A DNA stretch of 64,000 nt from an uncultured Gammaproteobacteria bacterium (GCA_964514995.1 CAZETA010000002.1:10530-74529), one strand, 5' to 3'; positions 1,394 to 52,108 are shown, counted from the stretch's first letter. Translations and numbers: made by a program. Notes: generated from the letters alone by a model not told the origin.

Positions 1394-1480
1394 ATACTTT
1401 TTGTCACCAAAAAGTATCAAAAAGTGTTGGGGCCGCAGAACTCCCCGCCTCGGCGGGTCAAACAGCTGTCGCCCCAAACC
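1394..1480 (+). repeat. Conserved intercistronic structured element, copy 1 (perfect 8-bp hairpin ACTTTTTG-tcac-CAAAAAGT, then GTTGGGGCCGCAGAACTC ... TCAAACAGCTGYCGCCCYAAACC)
   Basis: Near-identical to 31221-31319. It starts 9 nt after the DUF167 stop and ends about 40 nt before the malic-enzyme ATG. The long-range pairing GGGGCCGCAG/CTGTCGCCCC encloses a variable hairpin. Confidence 0.6.
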
Positions 1481-3197: not shown

Positions 3198-3918
3198 AGC
3201 TTTGAGGGTTTTGAATTTTTTGATTATTTAAGAAGAAGGTGGGAGTTCCGTCTATCTGAGCGGTACCACTTTGGACATCGGCTTCAATGTTGTTTTTTAC
3301 CTCGCTTGAGTCGAAGTCGGCTTTAAATTTTTCTAAATTTAAACCCAATTTTTCCGCATAGGTATTAAAAATATCTTTAGCATTCTTTTCTTCAGACCAG
3401 AATCTTTGGCCGTCAAACAGCAAGTCGTGCATTTCCCAAAATTTACCCTGCATTCCCGCCGCCTCTGCGGCCTGGGCTGCGATTCTGGCATTACCATGTT
3501 GCTGTAAAGGGAAGTGTCTGTACACAACTGCTAAGTTTGGAAAGTCCTTAACGAGTTGCTTGACCAGCGGATAGTAGGCGCCGCAAGCAGGGCATTGAAA
3601 ATCACTGTATTCAATCAGGGTAACTTGGGATTTTGTATCTCCAACTTGTTGGCCGCCGTCCTGTAAAGGCGCGCCTTTTATCCAGTCCGTTTCATCAGCT
3701 GCCCGAACACTGCCGCCAACAAAGTTTGTGCCAGGGTTTTTTGAGGCCATGGCTACCATGATGGCAATGGTACCTCCGACAAAAATAGTAATAAAAGACC
3801 ACAACAAGACTGAAGTCAGCCGTTTTTTCCGCTGCTCAGCCAGTTGTCTGTTTATTTTCTCTTCCTTTTTTAATTCCTGCCGTTCTTTTTTGCTTAAGTC
3901 TTGAGTGTTATCTTCCAT
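3154..3918 (-). CDS. DsbA-like thioredoxin-fold thiol-disulfide oxidoreductase (membrane-anchored)
   Basis: CPAC active site (YSDFQCPACGAY) and an N-terminal TM anchor. It overlaps the VKOR gene by 44 nt, consistent with a VKOR-DsbA redox pair. Confidence 0.75.
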   Translation of the reverse strand: MEDNTQDLSKKERQELKKEEKINRQLAEQRKKRLTSVLLWSFITIFVGGTIAIMVAMASKNPGTNFVGGSVRAADETDWIKGAPLQDGGQQVGDTKSQVTLIEYSDFQCPACGAYYPLVKQLVKDFPNLAVVYRHFPLQQHGNARIAAQAAEAAGMQGKFWEMHDLLFDGQRFWSEEKNAKDIFNTYAEKLGLNLEKFKADFDSSEVKNNIEADVQSGTAQIDGTPTFFLNNQKIQNPQSYEQFRGIIQQANNS

Positions 3919-3998
3919 ATTTTGGGTGTTATTACTAAATAATACGGTTATTATATTTCATGGCCAGCTTTACGTCAACTACACAGTATAGTAGGTGT

Positions 3999-4721
3999 TT
4001 ATCTGTTGTATTTTTTTGGTGAAACTTTGGAGAAAAACGGTAGATACATGTCTTTGCTCGTTTCAATAAGCAATTCTCGGTGATTTATTTTTTCACAAAA
4101 TTCTACTGGCGCATTCGTGATTATTGCTAAGGGTTGTTGTTCTCGGCCCTCGCCCATTGTTAATACTCCGGCAGTAGCCAGACAGTCGGCGATATTCGTG
4201 GTAGAGAAAACAAATTTTTTGCCAAACAGATCGGGAGTGCCGATATAATTTTTAAGCCCCCGAAAACCTGCGTATCCTAGGGTCACGCCAGTCACGCCGG
4301 CGCGCAGCGGCATTACACGGCTGTCGGTAATTAACACGCCAAGATTTTTGATCTTAAATTTTTTTTGTAGCTGGGTGCGCAGATATGCAGCGGTTTTGAA
4401 ACTATCCTTGGGCAATAAGATTAATTTTCCGTTGGCGTTTGATTCGTCGATGCCGGCAGAAGCCATAATCATACCATCCTTTATAGTCATCCAGACATGG
4501 GGAGTGTTGGTGGGCACGGCCATTTGACTCTCGGCGCGGATTAGCGCTTCTCTTTCTTTTTCATTCTTAATAATCGCAGTCCGTTTTTCTGAGAGGGCGA
4601 CAACTTTTGAAGTGACAACCAGGACTGATTTTTCAGGCAACTTTTTGATATATTGGTTTATAAAATTAAAAAGATTTTCTCCTTCTCGGAATATTCTTGT
4701 CTTAATAGGTCTGACTAGCAT
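3999..4721 (-). CDS. CofE-like (F420-0:gamma-glutamyl ligase family) protein
   Basis: 'VLVVTSKVVALSEKR' and an overall CofE-like fold signature. Confidence 0.55.
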   Translation of the reverse strand: MLVRPIKTRIFREGENLFNFINQYIKKLPEKSVLVVTSKVVALSEKRTAIIKNEKEREALIRAESQMAVPTNTPHVWMTIKDGMIMASAGIDESNANGKLILLPKDSFKTAAYLRTQLQKKFKIKNLGVLITDSRVMPLRAGVTGVTLGYAGFRGLKNYIGTPDLFGKKFVFSTTNIADCLATAGVLTMGEGREQQPLAIITNAPVEFCEKINHRELLIETSKDMYLPFFSKVSPKKYNR

Positions 4722-4722
4722 A

Positions 4723-5253
4723 TCACTTCTTAATTTTATAATGAATCAGGATTGTGTCTCGTTTGTTTATTTTTTTAATGGATATTAGTTTTACTTTGCT
4801 TGTTGCAGTTCCGCCAATAAACATATCTTTTCCGCGTCCAAAAATCAATGGCTCAATACTAATAAACACTTCGTCCAGCAGTTCATTTTCTAGCATATAT
4901 CTGTATACTGATCCGCCGCCTAGCACAGCCACGGTTTTGTATGTACCTAGAATTGGTTGGAGGTCTATTGTTGCAGGGTTTACAAACGTAACCGAACCAC
5001 GTTTTTGAATGTTCTTAATTCGACTGGACAGGACAAATGTATTGCGCTGGCGCAGTCGAGCGGCCGCGGCCGTATAGGTATTTCGTCCGACAACGACGGC
5101 TTCCGTCTCGGCTAGGGATTTTTGCAAGAATTGCCAGTCTTCGGGGCTGGTCCAGTCAGGCATCTTTTTCGTAGTCAGAGAAATTTTTCCGTCCACGCTG
5201 GCGGCTATGAAGGCGGTATATTTTGTTTTAGACTGCGGTTGTTTGGTTTTCAT
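4723..5253 (-). CDS. RibD C-terminal domain / dihydrofolate-reductase-like reductase
   Basis: 'FIAASVDGKIS...VVVGRNTY...VAVLGGGSVY' is typical of RibD_C/DHFR-like proteins. Confidence 0.6.
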   Translation of the reverse strand: MKTKQPQSKTKYTAFIAASVDGKISLTTKKMPDWTSPEDWQFLQKSLAETEAVVVGRNTYTAAAARLRQRNTFVLSSRIKNIQKRGSVTFVNPATIDLQPILGTYKTVAVLGGGSVYRYMLENELLDEVFISIEPLIFGRGKDMFIGGTATSKVKLISIKKINKRDTILIHYKIKK

Positions 5254-5887
5254 TTCGTTCCTTTAGAAGATAAATACCCACATATGAAAGCGGTGTATAT
5301 AACGCCCCCATTGCCACCTTGTATAGCCACCAGGCAATGATGATACTTACCAGGGTATTAGTCGGGTACACACCGACAAAAGCGATGATCATAAAGATGA
5401 CTGTGTCTAAAAATTGTGACCAGATATTAGATAGAGTTGATCGTAGCCAGAATTTTTTTTCACCAAATTTGCTACGGAAGAAGAAAAATGACAACACATC
5501 TTGATATTCGGCGATTAAGAAGGCGACAAGCGAGGCGATGGCAATGCGTACGGATACCCCAAATACATCATTATATCCTGCTCGCACCCACTCGCTTTTT
5601 GGTGACCAAGGCATGGCCAGCGATATTAAGGAATAGGCGATAAAGAGAGCTGTGGCAACAAAACCGGCGAGGACAAAAAATTTAGCCATTCGTTTGCCGT
5701 AGACCTCACCGACGACATCAGTCATCAAGAAAACAAAAGGAAAGTAGAAGACTGATACCGATAAGTTCGTGCCAAAAACAAAAGGCATTAGTTTGAGCCC
5801 CAGGGTATTAGCCGCGAACAGGGATACGAGGTAAATTCCTAGAGCGATAATTAGTTTTTTAAATGATTTTTCGCTGAGTTGAATCAT
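5228..5887 (-). CDS. YhhQ/DUF165-family (queuosine-precursor transporter-like) membrane protein
   Basis: Polytopic membrane protein with a YhhQ-like C-terminal region. Start reassigned to Met22 (ATG at 5887). Confidence 0.45.
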   Translation of the reverse strand: MIQLSEKSFKKLIIALGIYLVSLFAANTLGLKLMPFVFGTNLSVSVFYFPFVFLMTDVVGEVYGKRMAKFFVLAGFVATALFIAYSLISLAMPWSPKSEWVRAGYNDVFGVSVRIAIASLVAFLIAEYQDVLSFFFFRSKFGEKKFWLRSTLSNIWSQFLDTVIFMIIAFVGVYPTNTLVSIIIAWWLYKVAMGALYTPLSYVGIYLLKERNENQTTAV

Positions 5888-6159: not shown

Positions 6160-6414
6160 TCTGTTAGTCGGGATTGTGGGACGAAGTTGGAACATATTTA
6201 TTCCAACATTAATCTGTGTCAGATACTATACCAGCGCATTAAATTTTTGTAAACAAAAAGACCTCCGTAATATTTACAAAGGCCTTTATGTTGAATTTAT
6301 CAAGGCTACTCTCGTTATGGCTTTAGATAGCTAAAACGATAACGAGATGGAATAGCCTTGATGAGCGCAACCCCAGAGCTCGCCAGCCGAAGCCGGAAGA
6401 TCGGGGTCGCCCGC

Positions 6415-9939: not shown

Positions 9940-10248
9940 ATAACGTAAAGTTAAATAAATAATAAATTAAAAACAAAAACGGCCCCTTTATCCGGGCGGC
10001 AACCTTTCGGTCGCCCTATCACCTTTCGGTGAAAGACCACAAGTAGTACCCGGTCAAAAAGACCGTTTTCTACTTGTGGATTTGATGACCATGCCCTAGA
10101 TTTTATCTAGAGTTTAGGTCTAAATTGTCGTGATTATATTACCACGCCTTTTTAGCCTTTGCAATCTTGACTTTTAGCTATTATCCGTTCAAAATAAGCC
10201 ACATTCCTGGCCTTCCTATTATCGGTTAGTTTAACTATAAGAATACGT

Positions 10249-11202
10249 ATGGATAAAATTAACCTTCAAGAATATTACATTGAAGAACATGTTTACAAGG
10301 GCGATTACTACAACCCTAATTTTATAATTACTGTCGCCGTTGCAGAACTAAGTAAGCGCTTAGTGTATCTTTCCCGTAATGGTTATACCATAGGCAAATA
10401 TAAAAAAGCTGATCAGACACATAGAGAACCGCCTAAGTCCTTGTCCCAACTTGAATACACGACTAATTTCCACTTCTTAATAGCAATAAGAAAGAATTTT
10501 AGCATTGATAATAGCAAGACGAAACTTATCATTCTGAAATTACTTAACAAAAAAGGGTTTAAAAAGGAGATTGCAAACTTAAATCACCTTATCCATAGTG
10601 GAGAAAAATATTATCAAGAATTTAGAAAATTGGCATTTGAACTATTAAAATCTGACCTTAACCCGCGGGATAATAAAAATTTTGAAGCTATCAAAAAAGA
10701 TAGGGGTTTTAACAGTAAAGAGCTTGAAAAACAATTCTTATACAGTGTTTACATAGACCATCTAAAAAGAAAATTCAAAATACCAGATCAGTATAATTTT
10801 GTGCTAGAAACTATTATTGAAAAAGGATTTGATTACACAATTGATTTTATCGATACTCTTACTTTAAACAATTTAGCCTACTTGGATTACTATAATTGTA
10901 TCCCTTACTTTATACCATCACACAATTATCTTGGCTGTAAGTACGCTCAACAACCTGAGCATAAAAATATAATAAAATCTTTGCCAATAGTCTATTACTT
11001 TAGTCAAAAATATCTTAAAGATACGGTTACTGATCTTCCGGCTATTAATTATGAATCTTATTATTCTGTATACAGGCTAACAAAACAAAAACCCGGGTTA
11101 ACCGATAAAGAAATTGCCGAACAACTATTAGGGGCATGTGGAAAAAAGGAAGTTGATAGAATTAAGCAAACTAGAGCGCGTTTAAGACATCTTCTAGCAT
11201 AA
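10249..11202 (+). CDS. Hypothetical protein with a possible C-terminal HTH (element-associated)
   Basis: No recognised catalytic motif. The C-terminus 'LTDKEIAEQLLGACGKKEVDRIKQTRARLRHL' resembles a sigma-region-4/LuxR-type HTH. Confidence 0.45.
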   Translation: MDKINLQEYYIEEHVYKGDYYNPNFIITVAVAELSKRLVYLSRNGYTIGKYKKADQTHREPPKSLSQLEYTTNFHFLIAIRKNFSIDNSKTKLIILKLLNKKGFKKEIANLNHLIHSGEKYYQEFRKLAFELLKSDLNPRDNKNFEAIKKDRGFNSKELEKQFLYSVYIDHLKRKFKIPDQYNFVLETIIEKGFDYTIDFIDTLTLNNLAYLDYYNCIPYFIPSHNYLGCKYAQQPEHKNIIKSLPIVYYFSQKYLKDTVTDLPAINYESYYSVYRLTKQKPGLTDKEIAEQLLGACGKKEVDRIKQTRARLRHLLA

Positions 11203-13388: not shown

Positions 13389-14858
13389 ATGAAATACATC
13401 GCTTATTGTCGTAAATCTACGGAATCTGAGGATAGGCAGGTTTTATCTATAGAATCACAAGCAAATGAAATGTATAAGAGTGCTGAACGTAATAATGTTG
13501 TGTTAGATAAAATTTTTACCGAAAGTATGTCGGCCAAAGCCCCGGGCCGCCCTGTATTTAAAGAAGTGATGGCCTATATTGAAAAAAATGGTCCTTGTAT
13601 TCTGTATGTTTGGAAATTAGATCGTCTGGCCCGGAATGCTTTTGAAGCCGGTCAGATTTCGTGGTTCATGGATAGGAAATTAATTATTGAAATTCGTACG
13701 TTTGAAAAAGTATATAAAAATATTTCTGACGATAAATTTTTCATGAGTTTGGATTTTGGTATTGCGAAAAAATATGTTGATGATTTAAGTACTAATGTAA
13801 AGCGGGGGATACGAACAAAAATAGAAAAGGGCGGTTGGCCGAGTAAAGCTCCATTTGGATATGTAAACGATAGAGGGAATAAAGTTATTTTTCCTGATTT
13901 AGTAATGGCGCCCCTTATTACGGAGATGTTTAATTTATATTCTAGCGGTGGTTGCAGTATTAAAGACCTGGTAAATATCATGTACGAAAAGGGCTTGCGT
14001 ACATTGAAGGGCTATAAGGCCAGTAAAAGCGTTTTACATCGTACTCTTACCAATCCAGTGTATTGCGGATTTATTAGGAAAGATAATAAGCTTTTTGTTG
14101 GCAATCATGTGGCGATTATTTCTAAAGATATTTTTGATAATGTCCAAGATATAATTAATGGAAAAAACAAAAGTAGAAAGCAAGTCTATAGTTTTCCGCA
14201 TCGGGGATATATGCGATGCCATGTTTGTGGATGTGCCTTAACTGGCTCACTTAAAAAGGGTCATGTGTATTACTACTGCACAAACGGCAAAGGTATTTGC
14301 CAAGAACAAAAGAAAGGGTATTTACGCTCTGAAGTAGTAGATGGCTTAATGGCTGATATTTTTGGAAGGATTGAATTTGATGAGGAAACCATTGAAATAA
14401 TGTACCTGGCTAAAAAGGAAGAAATGGCTTATGACAAGAATTATGCTGTAACTGCCATACAGAATCTTACTAAACAGGCTTCTCTGGCCCGTGAGAAGCA
14501 GGGTAAGCTGGTAGATAGTTATTTGGCTGGTAATATTCCTGAAGACCTTTATAACGCAAAAATACAGGCTCTTAATAATGAGGTGGTTGCTGCAGAGTCA
14601 CAACTCAAGAAATTACAGCAAAAGCATATTAATATTGAATCTACTTTGGAACTCACTAGAAAGAAGTTTTTATCCGCTTCTGTAGCCAAAAAAGAATTTC
14701 TTGAGCAAGATAATATAAAAAAGCGTAAAGTGCTTGGAAATGTACTTTGGAACCTCACTATTGAAAATAAGGATTTGGCTTCATATAAACTAAAAGACCC
14801 CTACCAAAGGATGGCGGAGGTCTCCAAAAACTGCACTTTTGCCGAATTGTCGGGGTAG
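13389..14858 (+). CDS. Large serine recombinase (integrase)
   Basis: N-terminal resolvase catalytic motif (YCRKSTESEDRQ...SIESQ), recombinase domain, Cys-rich zinc ribbon (CHVCGCAL...YYYCTNGKGIC) and a C-terminal coiled coil. The TAG stop overlaps the tRNA-Pro 3' end. Confidence 0.85.
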   Translation: MKYIAYCRKSTESEDRQVLSIESQANEMYKSAERNNVVLDKIFTESMSAKAPGRPVFKEVMAYIEKNGPCILYVWKLDRLARNAFEAGQISWFMDRKLIIEIRTFEKVYKNISDDKFFMSLDFGIAKKYVDDLSTNVKRGIRTKIEKGGWPSKAPFGYVNDRGNKVIFPDLVMAPLITEMFNLYSSGGCSIKDLVNIMYEKGLRTLKGYKASKSVLHRTLTNPVYCGFIRKDNKLFVGNHVAIISKDIFDNVQDIINGKNKSRKQVYSFPHRGYMRCHVCGCALTGSLKKGHVYYYCTNGKGICQEQKKGYLRSEVVDGLMADIFGRIEFDEETIEIMYLAKKEEMAYDKNYAVTAIQNLTKQASLAREKQGKLVDSYLAGNIPEDLYNAKIQALNNEVVAAESQLKKLQQKHINIESTLELTRKKFLSASVAKKEFLEQDNIKKRKVLGNVLWNLTIENKDLASYKLKDPYQRMAEVSKNCTFAELSG

Positions 14859-14923
14859 TGGGACTTGAACCCACAATCCCCTGGTCCCAAACCAGGTGCT
14901 CTAGCCAATTGAGCCATACCCCG
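14851..14923 (-). tRNA. tRNA-Pro (anticodon TGG)
   Basis: Cloverleaf by eye: acceptor CGGGGTA/TACCCCG, anticodon stem CCTGG/CCAGG with loop TTTGGGA, T-arm GGGTTCAAGTCCC. Confidence 0.85.
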
Positions 14924-14972
14924 TATTTTGTTTGTGGCACGCTTAGCGTGCCAGCCACAACGCTCAGCGTTG

Positions 14973-15044
14973 TGCCGCGGGTCAGAATTGAACTGACGAC
15001 GCCAGCCTCTTCAGGGCTGCGCTCTACCACTGAGCTACCACGGC
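14973..15044 (-). tRNA. tRNA-Phe (anticodon GAA)
   Basis: Acceptor GCCGTGG/CCGCGGC, D-arm TAGCTCAGTGGTAGAGC, anticodon loop CTGAAGA, T-arm GTCAGTTCAATTCTGAC. Confidence 0.85.
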
Positions 15045-15049
15045 GTTTG

Positions 15050-15123
15050 TGGACCCTATCGGGCTCGAACCGATCACCCCCGCGTTGCAAACGCGGTGCT
15101 CTACCAAATGAGCTAAGGGCCCT
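15050..15123 (-). tRNA. tRNA-Ala (anticodon TGC), with G3:U70
   Basis: Acceptor GGGCCCT/AGGGTCC includes the G3-U70 identity pair; anticodon loop TTTGCAA; T-arm ATCGGTTCGAGCCCGAT. Confidence 0.85.
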
Positions 15124-30487: not shown

Positions 30488-31213
30488 ATGAGCGGACATT
30501 CAAAATGGCATAACATACAGGCGAGGAAAGGCAAGCAGGACGCTTTGCGTAGTGGGCAATTTACCAAGATTTCTAAGTTGATTAGTATTGCGGCAAGAGG
30601 TGGCGGTGATCCGACCGCTAATTTTTCATTGCGCATTGCCGTTGATAAAGCCCGGGCTGTCGGTATGCCTAAAGACAATATCGAGCGGGCGATCAAGCGA
30701 GGCACCGGTGAGCTCGAGGGGGCGCAAATTGAAGAAGTGTTGTATGAGTGTTATGGTCCGGGCGGGGTGGCGGTACTCGTCAAATGTTTAACCGATAATA
30801 AGAATCGCACGGTATCGGACATCAAACATATTTTTTCCAAGCACGATGGTTCTATGGCTGGAGCTGGCAGTGTGTCGTGGATGTTTCAGCAGTTGGGAGT
30901 GATTACGATTACTAAAGACCAGCTAACAATAAATAAAATTGATCGAGATATGTTTGATTTGCAAGTGATTGATGCAGGCGCAGAAGATATCGAAGAAGAC
31001 GGAGAGTTGATTATTAAAACCAAAATAGAGAATTTTCAGAAAGTGTTAAGTTCTTTAAAAGAAATGAATGTAGAAGTAACTGAATCTGGTTTGCAGTGGG
31101 TGGCGAAAGATACAGTTCCGGTAAGTGTCGAAGTATCTGAGAAACTGCAAGGATTATTTGAGGAATTGGACGGGAGTGATGATGTTGACGATTACTTTAC
31201 GAATGCAGAGTAA
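30488..31213 (+). CDS. yebC: YebC/PmpR-family DNA-binding regulator
   Basis: MSGHSKWHNIQARKGKQD N-terminus and a full-length YebC pattern. Sits immediately upstream of ruvC, the classic arrangement. Confidence 0.85.
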   Translation: MSGHSKWHNIQARKGKQDALRSGQFTKISKLISIAARGGGDPTANFSLRIAVDKARAVGMPKDNIERAIKRGTGELEGAQIEEVLYECYGPGGVAVLVKCLTDNKNRTVSDIKHIFSKHDGSMAGAGSVSWMFQQLGVITITKDQLTINKIDRDMFDLQVIDAGAEDIEEDGELIIKTKIENFQKVLSSLKEMNVEVTESGLQWVAKDTVPVSVEVSEKLQGLFEELDGSDDVDDYFTNAE

Positions 31214-31220
31214 ATTACCT

Positions 31221-31319
31221 ATACTTTTTGTCACCAAAAAGTGTTGGGGCCGCAGAACTCGTCTGACTGACAGGCTGGTTTTGCAAGTAGGTGAGTTCAA
31301 ACAGCTGCCGCCCTAAACC
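31221..31319 (+). repeat. Conserved intercistronic structured element, copy 2
   Basis: Same 5' hairpin and conserved 5'/3' blocks as 1394-1480. Starts 8 nt after the yebC stop and ends 16 nt before the ruvC ATG. The 3' closing-helix arm covaries with copy 1 (G:T becomes G:C). Confidence 0.6.
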
Positions 31320-31335
31320 CTATAACACAAAGATC

Positions 31336-31851
31336 ATGTCTATTTTGAAAAATAATAACAACGAAGTGATTCTTGGTATAGACCCTGGTTTTGGGAGAGT
31401 CGGCTATGGAATAGTAAAAAAAGACGCGAGAGGTGAGTGGAGGATGGTGGTGTTTGGTTGTCTAGAAACTTCGTCTAAGAAAAGTTTTGTGGAACGAATT
31501 GCTGAGATACACGAAGAGCTAAATGCGATTATAAAAAAACATCAGCCAACTCGGATGGCGGTAGAAGAATTATTTTTTTTCAAAAATGTGAAGACTGCTA
31601 TTGAGGTAGGACAGGCTAGAGGAGTAATACTCCTGACTGGAGTAGAGAATAAGTTGCCAATAGATGAATTTACACCGCTGCAGGTCAAACAAGCGATTAC
31701 CGGTTATGGTAGGGCAGAGAAGGGGCAGATGCAAAAGATTGTGGCTATGATTTTGGGGATGAAGGAAGCAATCAAATCTGATGATGCGGCTGATGCCTTG
31801 GCTGTGGCGCTGTGTGCAGGGCAGAGTTTGTGGGCTAGTAAGTTAGGATGA
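31336..31851 (+). CDS. ruvC: Holliday junction resolvase RuvC
   Basis: ILGIDPGFGRVGYGIV N-terminus and conserved acidic residues. Start moved to the ATG at 31336, after the repeat element. Confidence 0.9.
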   Translation: MSILKNNNNEVILGIDPGFGRVGYGIVKKDARGEWRMVVFGCLETSSKKSFVERIAEIHEELNAIIKKHQPTRMAVEELFFFKNVKTAIEVGQARGVILLTGVENKLPIDEFTPLQVKQAITGYGRAEKGQMQKIVAMILGMKEAIKSDDAADALAVALCAGQSLWASKLG

Positions 31852-51616: not shown

Positions 51617-52108
51617 TTATTTTGCCCAATCGCAAATATATTGGTGGTATTTAATCTGCGCCCCGTCAAGCATTCTTCTGGAGGCTTTCCAAACATCCGT
51701 ATCATGGTATTTATCACTTTCAAAGATTATTTCCGTGATACCATTTTGGATAAGAGTTTTAGCACATTCGTTGCATGGGAAAAGCGTGCAATAAATTTTT
51801 CCACCCTTTACTGAGACGGCAGAATTATAGACGGCATTTTCTTCGGCGTGACAGACAAAAGCATATTTTGTTTCCAAAAATGAACCTTCTCGTTCCCACG
51901 GGAGTTGGTCGTTATCGATGCCTCGAGGGAAGCCGTTGTATCCCATACCGACCACAACATTATCTTGATTGACGATGACAGCCCCAGCTTGGGTGGAAGG
52001 ATCTTTTGAGCGTTCGGAAATTACATGCGCCATCCGCATGAAACATTCATCCCAAGAAATGTAGTTTTCTCTTGCTGTTTGCATATCGTTTAAATTATAT
52101 TTATACAA
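51617..52108 (-). CDS. dCMP/cytidine deaminase family (ComEB-like) zinc deaminase
   Basis: Zinc-binding HAE and PCxxC (CHAEENAV...LFPCNECAKTL) motifs. Confidence 0.8.
   Translation of the reverse strand: MYKYNLNDMQTARENYISWDECFMRMAHVISERSKDPSTQAGAVIVNQDNVVVGMGYNGFPRGIDNDQLPWEREGSFLETKYAFVCHAEENAVYNSAVSVKGGKIYCTLFPCNECAKTLIQNGITEIIFESDKYHDTDVWKASRRMLDGAQIKYHQYICDWAK

Follow-up and report, generated by a model that had tools for sequence, protein, structure and literature searches.

The window analysed here, a 64,000-nucleotide stretch of DNA, carries two copies of a structured intergenic element that belongs to a previously uncatalogued family absent from Rfam 15. The element is a unit of fixed architecture that is inserted or deleted whole in intergenic spacers, is present in multiple copies and in either orientation, and has a patchy distribution among lineages. 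Where copies are retained, they are conserved far above neutral expectation and show in-place compensatory changes. The explanation that we favour, and to which we give an even chance, is that these are non-autonomous dispersed structured intergenic elements of the Patescibacteria (CPR), similar in kind to the ERIC, REP, REPIN and Correia elements, co-transcribed and kept by selection. Patescibacteria represent a large and mostly uncultivated share of bacterial diversity and have tiny genomes in which intergenic bases are under pressure. To our knowledge, almost nothing has been established about their non-coding elements, expression signals and mobile DNA. On the basis of YebC homologues, the window belongs to this group, close to MAGs assigned to Parcubacteria and Magasanikbacteria.

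The two copies in the window

Copy 1 (1392-1485, + strand) is found between a DUF167 gene (1161-1385, +; PF02594, E-value: 2.5e-16; stop codon TAA at 1383-1385) and a malic enzyme gene (1520-2662, +; PF00390 and PF03949). It starts 8 nt past the DUF167 stop codon and ends 35 nt short of the malic enzyme ATG (1520). Copy 2 (31219-31324, +) is found between yebC (30488-31213, +; PF20772 and PF01709; stop codon TAA at 31211-31213) and ruvC (31336-31851, +; PF02075, E-value: 2.9e-46), starting 7 nt past the yebC stop codon and ending 12 nt short of the ruvC ATG (31336). The initial annotation had reported two repeated structured copies between these same gene pairs; Pfam confirms the flanking genes, and both copies are present with all of the sequence features described for them. 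Our covariance model of the family, R1, matches copy 1 with 90.2 bits (E-value: 1.8e-19) and copy 2 with 83.7 bits (E-value: 5.9e-18). No other copy is detected by R1 in the window, the next-best match scoring 16.6 bits. This third match (5590-5710, +; E-value: 0.035) has a long insertion in the first hairpin and poor junctions; it is probably noise, though it could be a very decayed copy.

Each copy begins with a small hairpin (P0), followed by a long-range helix (P1) that encloses the core. In copy 1, the P0 arms (1394-1403 and 1408-1417, +) form 10 bp around a TCAC loop (1404-1407), and are followed by the A-rich linker CAAAAAGTG (1418-1426, +), which repeats the P0 3' arm and is deleted in copy 2. 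The P1 5' arm TTGGGGCCGCAG (1427-1438, +) and 3' arm CTGTCGCCCCAA (1466-1477, +) flank a core (1439-1465, +) made up of the junction AACUC, the hairpin CCCGCC-TCG-GCGGG (1444-1457) and the junction UCAAACAG, and the C-rich tail ACCTC occupies 1478-1482. In copy 2, the P0 arms (31223-31230 and 31235-31242, +) form 8 bp around the same TCAC loop, the P1 arms are TTGGGGCCGCAG (31244-31255, +) and CTGCCGCCCTAA (31305-31316, +), and the tail ACCCT extends to 31321. The copy 2 core (31256-31304, +) contains AACUCG, a variable domain (hairpin GUCUG/CAGGC, then GGUUUUGCAAG) and the junction UUCAAACAG; within it, CAGAAC may alternatively pair with GUUUUG. Copy 1 is distinguished from copy 2 by an extra 10-nt repeat, ATCAAAAAGT, and by a shorter central hairpin. 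A derived P1 arm, GGGGCCGCAG, including a C.C mismatch, is common to both copies, which suggests recent copying within the genome or gene conversion.

The perfect hairpin with a tcac loop noted earlier corresponds to the 20-nt palindrome ACTTTTTGTCACCAAAAAGT, of which the window has two occurrences and no more (1396-1415 and 31223-31242); not one of 100 shuffled sequences contained it twice. Similarly, the conserved blocks GTGTTGGGGCCGCAGAACTC (20 nt, at 1424 and 31241) and TCAAACAGCTGYCGCCCYAAACC (23 nt, at 1458 and 31297) are confined within the window to the two copies, with a chance expectation of 0.00 for each. Predicted + strand folds containing P0 and the long-range P1 have minimum free energies of -36.9 kcal/mol (copy 1) and -38.1 kcal/mol (copy 2), with z-scores of -3.8 and -3.7, respectively. 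The core TTTTG-N4-CAAAA, counting both elements, is observed four times in the window against 0.5 expected, with further palindromes of this type at 6245-6258 (TTTTGTAAACAAAA) and 51866-51879 (TTTTGTTTCCAAAA).

When the window was compared with Rfam 15 at the gathering threshold, only a LOOT RNA and three tRNAs passed, and relaxing the E-value to 10 yielded, for the two element regions, spurious miRNA, snoRNA and P14 matches far under the cut-offs. The LOOT match (RF03000, an orphan structured RNA family of unknown function) is full-length (9998-10120, -; 82.8 bits against a gathering threshold of 46.4, E-value: 4e-14), and the three tRNA genes are clustered at 14850-15122 (-; 63-70 bits). In the papers searched, whether by sequence or by topic, the element is not described.

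A family of structured elements

A metagenome scan with the pattern ACTTTTTNTCACCAAAAAGT returned 91 stretches, of which approximately 30 distinct ones contain the whole element. The R1 model was built from 25 sequences, and a match with an E-value below 1e-8 was taken as a bona fide member. Loci on the contigs of relatives and of metagenomes are given L-numbers here. The palindrome scan and R1 identified 32 bona fide members from diverse Patescibacteria, with members lacking the exact palindrome (L050 3727-3848 and L046 1803-1912) recovered by R1. Family members are about 120-165 bp in length and share an architecture in which a U5/A5 hairpin (P0) and an A-rich repeat of the P0 3' arm precede a 12-bp P1 around a variable core, with a CCCC tail at the end. 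The consensus begins with YYTW, P0 (ACUUUUUG-UCAC-CAAAAAGU, 8-10 bp) and WAC-AAAAAGUG, continues with the P1 5' arm YYGGGGnnnnAG, AACUCGCC and a variable core of 14-70 nt, and closes with GCUCAAACAG, the P1 3' arm and AAACCCC. To this, the subgroup that includes the window copies adds a 3' extension, TTGTACAAGTAG, and then about 25 AT-rich nt. The junctions AACUCG and CUCAAACAG are nearly invariant in the alignment of members; in the distant members L069, L046 and L060 the junction sequences differ, and the central domain is not conserved.

Across the 32 members, 94.7% of alignment cells at paired positions are standard pairs. Both sides have changed in 14 of the 22 pairs, and compensatory changes are found in 11 of the 12 pairs of P1. 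The observed covariation score was not reached in any of 500 shuffles, and pairing fell to 38-60% in a control in which the 3' partner was slid by 1-3 columns. Support for the long-range helix had been drawn in the initial annotation from a lone G:U to G:C change between the window copies; this change is weak by itself, but the helix is real and covaries, with overwhelming support once relatives are added. Conserved unpaired nucleotides accompany covariation-supported helices, as is general for structured RNAs. The outer pairs of P0 also covary across the family (U-A, A-U and C-G, with A-U exchanged for U-A between subgroups), and the variants TCCTTTTG/CAAAAGGA and CTCCTTTTTG/CAAAAAGGAG, from L050 and L046, still pair. 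Because both versions of P0 are found in a single genome (L050), it is pairing that has been kept, as opposed to a fixed half-site for a protein. That the palindrome core hardly varies is due in part to the use of the palindrome as the search pattern.

Alternative pairings are predicted as well. According to RNAalifold, two CAAAAAGU repeats are alternative partners for the 5' arm of P0, and in several members of the subgroup CAGAAC can pair with GUUCUG within the core. Two further interactions were rejected: a pseudoknot joining the P0 loop to a 3' GGUG was found in only a few members, and the complementarity of the tail ACCCC, as an alternative partner for the 5' GGGG, is inconsistent beyond the G-run.

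A helix-based pattern returned only chance matches in GC-rich coding DNA when run against genome contigs and viral contigs, and a BLAST search against phages and plasmids gave no match to the element. The viral contigs (L121-L125) yielded five matches, each to the palindrome alone (23.6 bits). In human gut and IMG/VR contigs, the same 20-nt palindrome is found in an unrelated conserved context (…ggaatcacACTTTTTGTCACCAAAAAGTctgtcttgagc…), again as a palindrome-only match of 23.6 bits; these loci include L022, L026, L034, L038, L048, L051 and L074, among others, as well as the viral L121-L125. In a second unrelated context (L058, L063, L064, L067, L070, L085, L097, L098 and L108), the palindrome lies between cgtgcg and cgaac and is followed by short-repeat arrays (gtcgaa/cgactttgtcg). 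This second context is a different repeat family from another organism.

Gain, loss and constraint at orthologous sites

The element is found directly 5' of ruvC in five further lineages (L007/L008, L013, L014, L015/L016 and L096), in which YebC is 78-86% identical to that of the window. In L007 and L014, a minus-strand DUF3601 gene lies between yebC and the element, which still adjoins ruvC; location after a stop codon is therefore not a defining feature. In L110, L111 and L112 (YebC 73-77% identical), yebC and ruvC are separated by 1-9 nt (TAAtATG or a 9-nt spacer) with no element, and no R1-type element is found anywhere in 62 kb of L110-L112. In the window's clade, the yebC-ruvC junction is a hot spot for insertions, the structured element being one of several sequences found there. 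DUF3601 genes (-) are located there in L007 (10723-10974), L014 (1544-1795) and a JGI contig, and L111 has an unrelated 126-aa ORF at this junction (10719-11099). Approximately 6 kb from the ruvC copy of L015 is a bAvd/23S_rRNA_IVP-domain gene (10335-10649, -), of the accessory-protein type associated with diversity-generating retroelements.

At the malic enzyme locus, the element is present in the window and in L119/L120 (enzyme identity of 85%; 121.6 bits), and the site is empty in L114-L116 (90% identity; DUF167, 18 nt, ATG) and in L117/L118 (84%). The AT-rich 3' extension and spacer that runs from copy 1 to the malic enzyme ATG (1486-1519, +) has been gained or lost jointly with the element, as it aligns with the spacer of L119 (...ttttacagtATG) and is missing at the empty site of L114. 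L114-L116 are from the same assembly as L007, whose ruvC copy is present. Presence of the element tracks neither the order of gene identity nor the neighbouring acetyltransferase gene, so at least two events of gain or loss of a discrete unit are required. A small MITE-like repeat had been listed as one possible role in the initial annotation, and this alternative fits the dispersed, present-or-absent behaviour. Alignment of the flanks of the copies identified no consistent terminal inverted repeat (TIR) or target-site duplication (TSD), and comparison of filled and empty malic enzyme sites likewise gave neither, at a resolution limited by the AT-rich flanks.

Among the orthologous ruvC copies, identity within the element is 0.72-0.83, compared to 0.33-0.42, for most pairs, at fourfold-degenerate sites of yebC and ruvC, a value near saturation. 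For the closest pair, the window and L013, the corresponding values are 0.73 and 0.64. P1 has followed a compensatory path: position 5 is U-A in L077 and L020, C.A in L068, L014 and L015, U.G in L013 and C-G in the window and L007, and position 6 is A-U in L007 and G-C in most copies. Strong purifying selection with compensatory change at one orthologous site is unusual for a purely selfish repeat, and counts against the repeat model.

Placement relative to genes

Members of the window subgroup (5' edge TATAC or AATAC) are located on the sense strand between co-directional genes at six of six independent loci (p = 0.03). Specifically, these are yebC-ruvC; DUF167 or an acetyltransferase, followed by malic enzyme; gatC-gatA; comEC followed by a methyltransferase; uvrB-uvrA; and two tRNA-synthetase-like genes. 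The elements begin 5-20 nt past a stop codon and end 11-70 nt before a start codon. The earlier description of the element as lying 8-9 nt after stop codons inside operons thus holds, with this wider spacing, for the window subgroup, but does not extend to other lineages. In those with the 5' edge CCTTAC, eight loci are between convergent genes. Antisense copies between co-directional genes are found in L025 (pdxS-pdxT, with 17-18-nt spacers), L030 and L081, and one copy, 5' of ruvB in L069, is between divergent genes. Copies may also be paired: L050 has an inverted pair (3520-3644, +, and 3727-3848, -) 80 nt apart and 3' of rpsF-ssb-rpsR, L046 has a diverged tandem pair (1803-1912 and 2022-2138) 5' of rarA, and L072 has a tandem pair in which a decayed copy at about 940-1020 ends 7 nt before an intact one. 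The copies of L096 and L024 are decayed and internally deleted. Three exact-palindrome matches are found on contig Ga0209212_1000006 and three on JACCDN011077714.1, and overall there is approximately one copy per 30-150 kb (two in the 64-kb window). In L068, roughly 60 nt of the element are read as part of the ComEC ORF (3785-5413), which ends ...ILFVTKKYQKVLGRQNSPH*; it appears that the original ComEC stop codon was replaced by the insertion and the protein lengthened.

With placement this varied (antisense, convergent and paired), the element can be neither a classical 5' leader nor an ordinary terminator. The initial annotation had held that further copies placed randomly with respect to genes and lacking structural conservation would indicate a simple dispersed repeat. 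The search for further copies gave a divided answer: placement relative to genes is variable, and structure is strongly conserved. A plain dispersed repeat is therefore not an adequate description of the element, and nor is a classical cis-regulatory leader. A riboswitch or other 5' leader was rejected, as copies do not consistently lie in the sense orientation within the 5' UTRs of a coherent set of genes; the downstream genes are heterogeneous.

Another possibility, which we regard as doubtful, is that the element is a cis-acting regulatory RNA on the + strand, that is, a protein- or ligand-binding leader or intercistronic element that would control the downstream gene (ruvC, malic enzyme, uvrA, ruvB, rarA and others), for example by gating translation initiation or processing. 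The uniform sense placement of the window subgroup shortly before start codons hints at an RNA-level or promoter-level role. The element also remains with ruvC despite a divergent upstream gene in L007 and L014, and it is found 5' of ruvB (L069) and rarA (L046) in other lineages. Strong constraint on the copies, a covarying P1, conserved and A-rich unpaired segments, and the two alternative pairings (that of P0 with one or the other A-rich repeat, and that of CAGAAC with GUUCUG) are likewise what such an RNA would be expected to show. However, copies lie antisense inside operons in L025, L030 and L081, many are at 3' ends between convergent genes, and the downstream genes are heterogeneous (malic enzyme, gatA, a methyltransferase and thioredoxin). 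Furthermore, the central domain is unconserved, the junctions differ in L069, L046 and L060, and neither the mismatch counts nor the folding z-scores given below favour one strand.

Strand, promoter, terminator and coding analyses

G.U and A.C mismatches are equal in number (17 and 17, in part reflecting alignment shifts). In 27 of the 32 members the minus strand has the lower raw minimum free energy, but this bias is compositional, because z-scores from dinucleotide shuffles do not differ between strands (means of -3.9 for + and -3.6 for -, p = 0.28); both strands fold far better than shuffles. Upstream of the 32 members, the minus strand has no -10-like hexamer at a fixed distance (5 of 32 have one at -12/-13) and the plus strand has no conserved promoter. 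The 5' edge TATACT is itself -10-like, and a promoter scan reported TTTACG-18-TATACT at 31196-31225 (copy 2), from which a start site would fall inside P0; scan matches at both copies are at chance level.

A terminator scan detected nothing over copy 1 and, in copy 2, one weak internal 5-bp stem plus TGGTTTTG, which agrees, for the + strand, with the earlier statement that the copies are not terminators. P0 is followed by A-rich sequence, and the minus-strand U-run does not start until 5 nt past P1. An intrinsic terminator was therefore rejected on both strands, neither having a GC-rich stem with an immediate U-run. Coding potential was also rejected: compensatory substitutions exclude it, and the ORF through copy 1 (1388..) and the ComEC read-through in L068 merely mirror sequence conservation.

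These data bear on whether the element is an independently transcribed sRNA gene, on either strand, with minus-strand P1 and CACUUUUUG as the terminator. The copies are intergenic and in any orientation relative to their neighbours, and the minus strand has a GC-rich P1 followed by U-runs, the lower raw free energy, and tandem GA dinucleotides flanking the inner helix. Against this, no fixed -10 or conserved promoter is found on the respective strands, the difference in stability vanishes after composition is controlled for, and the U-run begins 5 nt beyond the stem. In addition, copies located 5-20 nt from flanking ORFs leave no room for an sRNA promoter. We consider an sRNA gene to be improbable.

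Neighbouring genes

A repair, recombination, replication or DNA-uptake gene directly adjoins the element at 10 of 22 independent loci (11 of 44 flanking genes). The products are RuvC, RuvB, UvrB, UvrA, RarA (twice), RecR, RecQ, photolyase, HolA and ComEC; one further locus, L050, follows the rpsF-ssb-rpsR operon. In the case of RarA, the element lies 5' of the gene in L046 and 3' of it in L055. In a binomial test, this enrichment has a p of about 1e-4 at a 6.5% background and 3e-3 at a 10% background, for a gene category picked post hoc. The recA loci of L114 and L117 have no element. Because of the post hoc category and these element-free recA loci, we treat the enrichment as an unexplained lead and not as proof of a regulon. 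It is nevertheless left unexplained by a repeat model, and counts against one. Directly 5' of recA in both L114 (7086-7787) and L117 (18491-19192) is an HTH_19/HTH_25 (XRE-like) gene, a candidate damage-response regulator with no link to the element.

Two explanations start from these neighbours. It is unlikely, in our estimate, that the element is a new class of structured RNA/ssDNA motif functionally coupled to CPR genome maintenance, with its repeat-like behaviour secondary. Such a module might mark or co-regulate ruvC, ruvB, uvrAB, rarA, recR, recQ, phr, holA and comEC through a dedicated binding protein or, alternatively, the structure might become active when DNA is single-stranded. We judge it quite unlikely that the element acts at the DNA level in a functional connection with genome-maintenance genes, whether as a protein-binding site, as an uptake- or recombination-type signal with a distribution like that of the Neisseria DUS, or as an operator-bearing cassette. 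Adjacency to such genes on either side and in either orientation would be compatible with a DNA-level role, as would the equally good structure on both strands and the perfect palindrome of P0, which overlaps the -10-like TATACT. However, the gene category was chosen post hoc, and the element is missing not only from recA (L114 and L117) but also from yebC-ruvC in L025, L110 and L112. Its frequency of about one per 30-150 kb is far under the density of uptake sequences. Compensatory P0 changes within one genome (L050a compared to L050b) indicate base pairing instead of a fixed half-site, and a 120-nt covarying structure exceeds the needs of an operator.

The Leptospira LexA-type motif is TTTGN5CAAA. 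An SOS/LexA operator was rejected for the present element: such a palindrome would be expected at the promoters of core SOS genes (recA and lexA), but the recA loci of L114 and L117 are element-free, and half-site changes are compensatory within one genome.

Proposed behaviour and significance

If the copies are dispersed structured elements, as we favour, they may have spread through a structure-specific enzyme, probably one acting on ssDNA, which recognises the hairpins together with the conserved unpaired bases. Such an enzyme would explain why helices covary between subfamilies while junctions stay fixed. Among the Pfam-annotated flanking ORFs, no transposase, recombinase or Y1 transposase adjoins any copy. 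In the window, the element parts genes that abut in relatives, and so it is either co-transcribed or a source of expression signals for ruvC and malic enzyme. Inside an operon (yebC-ruvC or DUF167-malic enzyme), it would be co-transcribed and fold in the mRNA, where an intercistronic folded module might uncouple cistrons that formerly abutted. The module would probably have an influence on the stability or processing of the mRNA, or else provide the downstream gene with expression signals; an effect of this kind on the host would explain its retention.

With its length of about 120 nt and textbook covariation, the element provides a concrete handle on CPR non-coding DNA: Rfam does not contain it, selection retains it within core operons, and it recurs beside genes for recombination and repair. 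Should it prove mobile, a structure-specific mobilisation system new to CPR would be indicated; should it prove regulatory, no regulon-like RNA or DNA signal for CPR genome maintenance would have preceded it. Either way, the covariance model is now usable for annotating CPR genomes.

Comparison with known elements

Several known systems were considered and rejected. Integron attC sites have core sites in the order 5'-RYYYAAC ... GTTRRRY-3' and follow a cassette ORF; the present element instead reads 5'-GTTGGGG ... CCCCAAAC-3' on both strands, and the neighbours are core housekeeping genes. PATEs, which derive from IS200/IS605, carry a pair of similar subterminal hairpins (LE and RE), and their left end has a fixed target tetranucleotide; the present element has only one small hairpin (P0), and its left flanks vary (TTAC, TTGC, CTAC, TTCC and others). 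Likenesses to retrons, HDV-like ribozymes, hairpin ribozymes, K-turns and the Cas9 nexus did not fit the written-out sequence.

Like MIRUs, the elements of the window subgroup are intercistronic in operons and have a single orientation with respect to transcription. MIRUs, however, are tandem units of 40-100 bp with short ORFs that overlap the flanking genes and provide translational coupling, while the present element has no such ORF logic, and its compensatory substitutions are incompatible with coding. Similarity to Correia elements (CREE/NEMIS) and other MITEs is found in the dispersed, non-autonomous nature of units of about 100-150 bp, in insertion polymorphism, in the predicted co-transcription and folding within mRNA, and in the possible presence of promoter-like sequence at the ends. 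As in MITEs, the units are short, non-coding and multi-copy, with both filled and empty sites. In contrast to MITEs, they have no TIR and no TA or other target duplication, and have covarying helices in place of a conserved TIR.

REP/BIME elements and REPINs are mobilised by RAYT (Y1 HUH) transposases. Like these, the present elements are structured extragenic palindromes that may be single, inverted or tandem, prefer 3' ends and convergent genes, are probably co-transcribed, and are long-persisting and conserved. They differ from REP elements and REPINs in having no GTAG-type head, in combining P0 with a long-range P1 instead of being simple palindromes of 20-40 nt, and in their far lower copy number; among the annotated flanking ORFs, no RAYT gene adjoins a copy.

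ERIC/IRU elements are imperfect palindromes of about 127 bp in enterobacteria. There is no sequence similarity between these and the present element, whose host belongs to the Patescibacteria, and ERIC forms one long imperfect palindrome, unlike the combination here of a small hairpin with a long-range helix, conserved internal loops and a variable core. In other respects the two are alike: both have a similar length, occupy transcribed intergenic sites (including those within operons) in both orientations and at low to moderate copy number, are present or absent at orthologous sites, have no known transposase, and are conserved across genera beyond neutral expectation.
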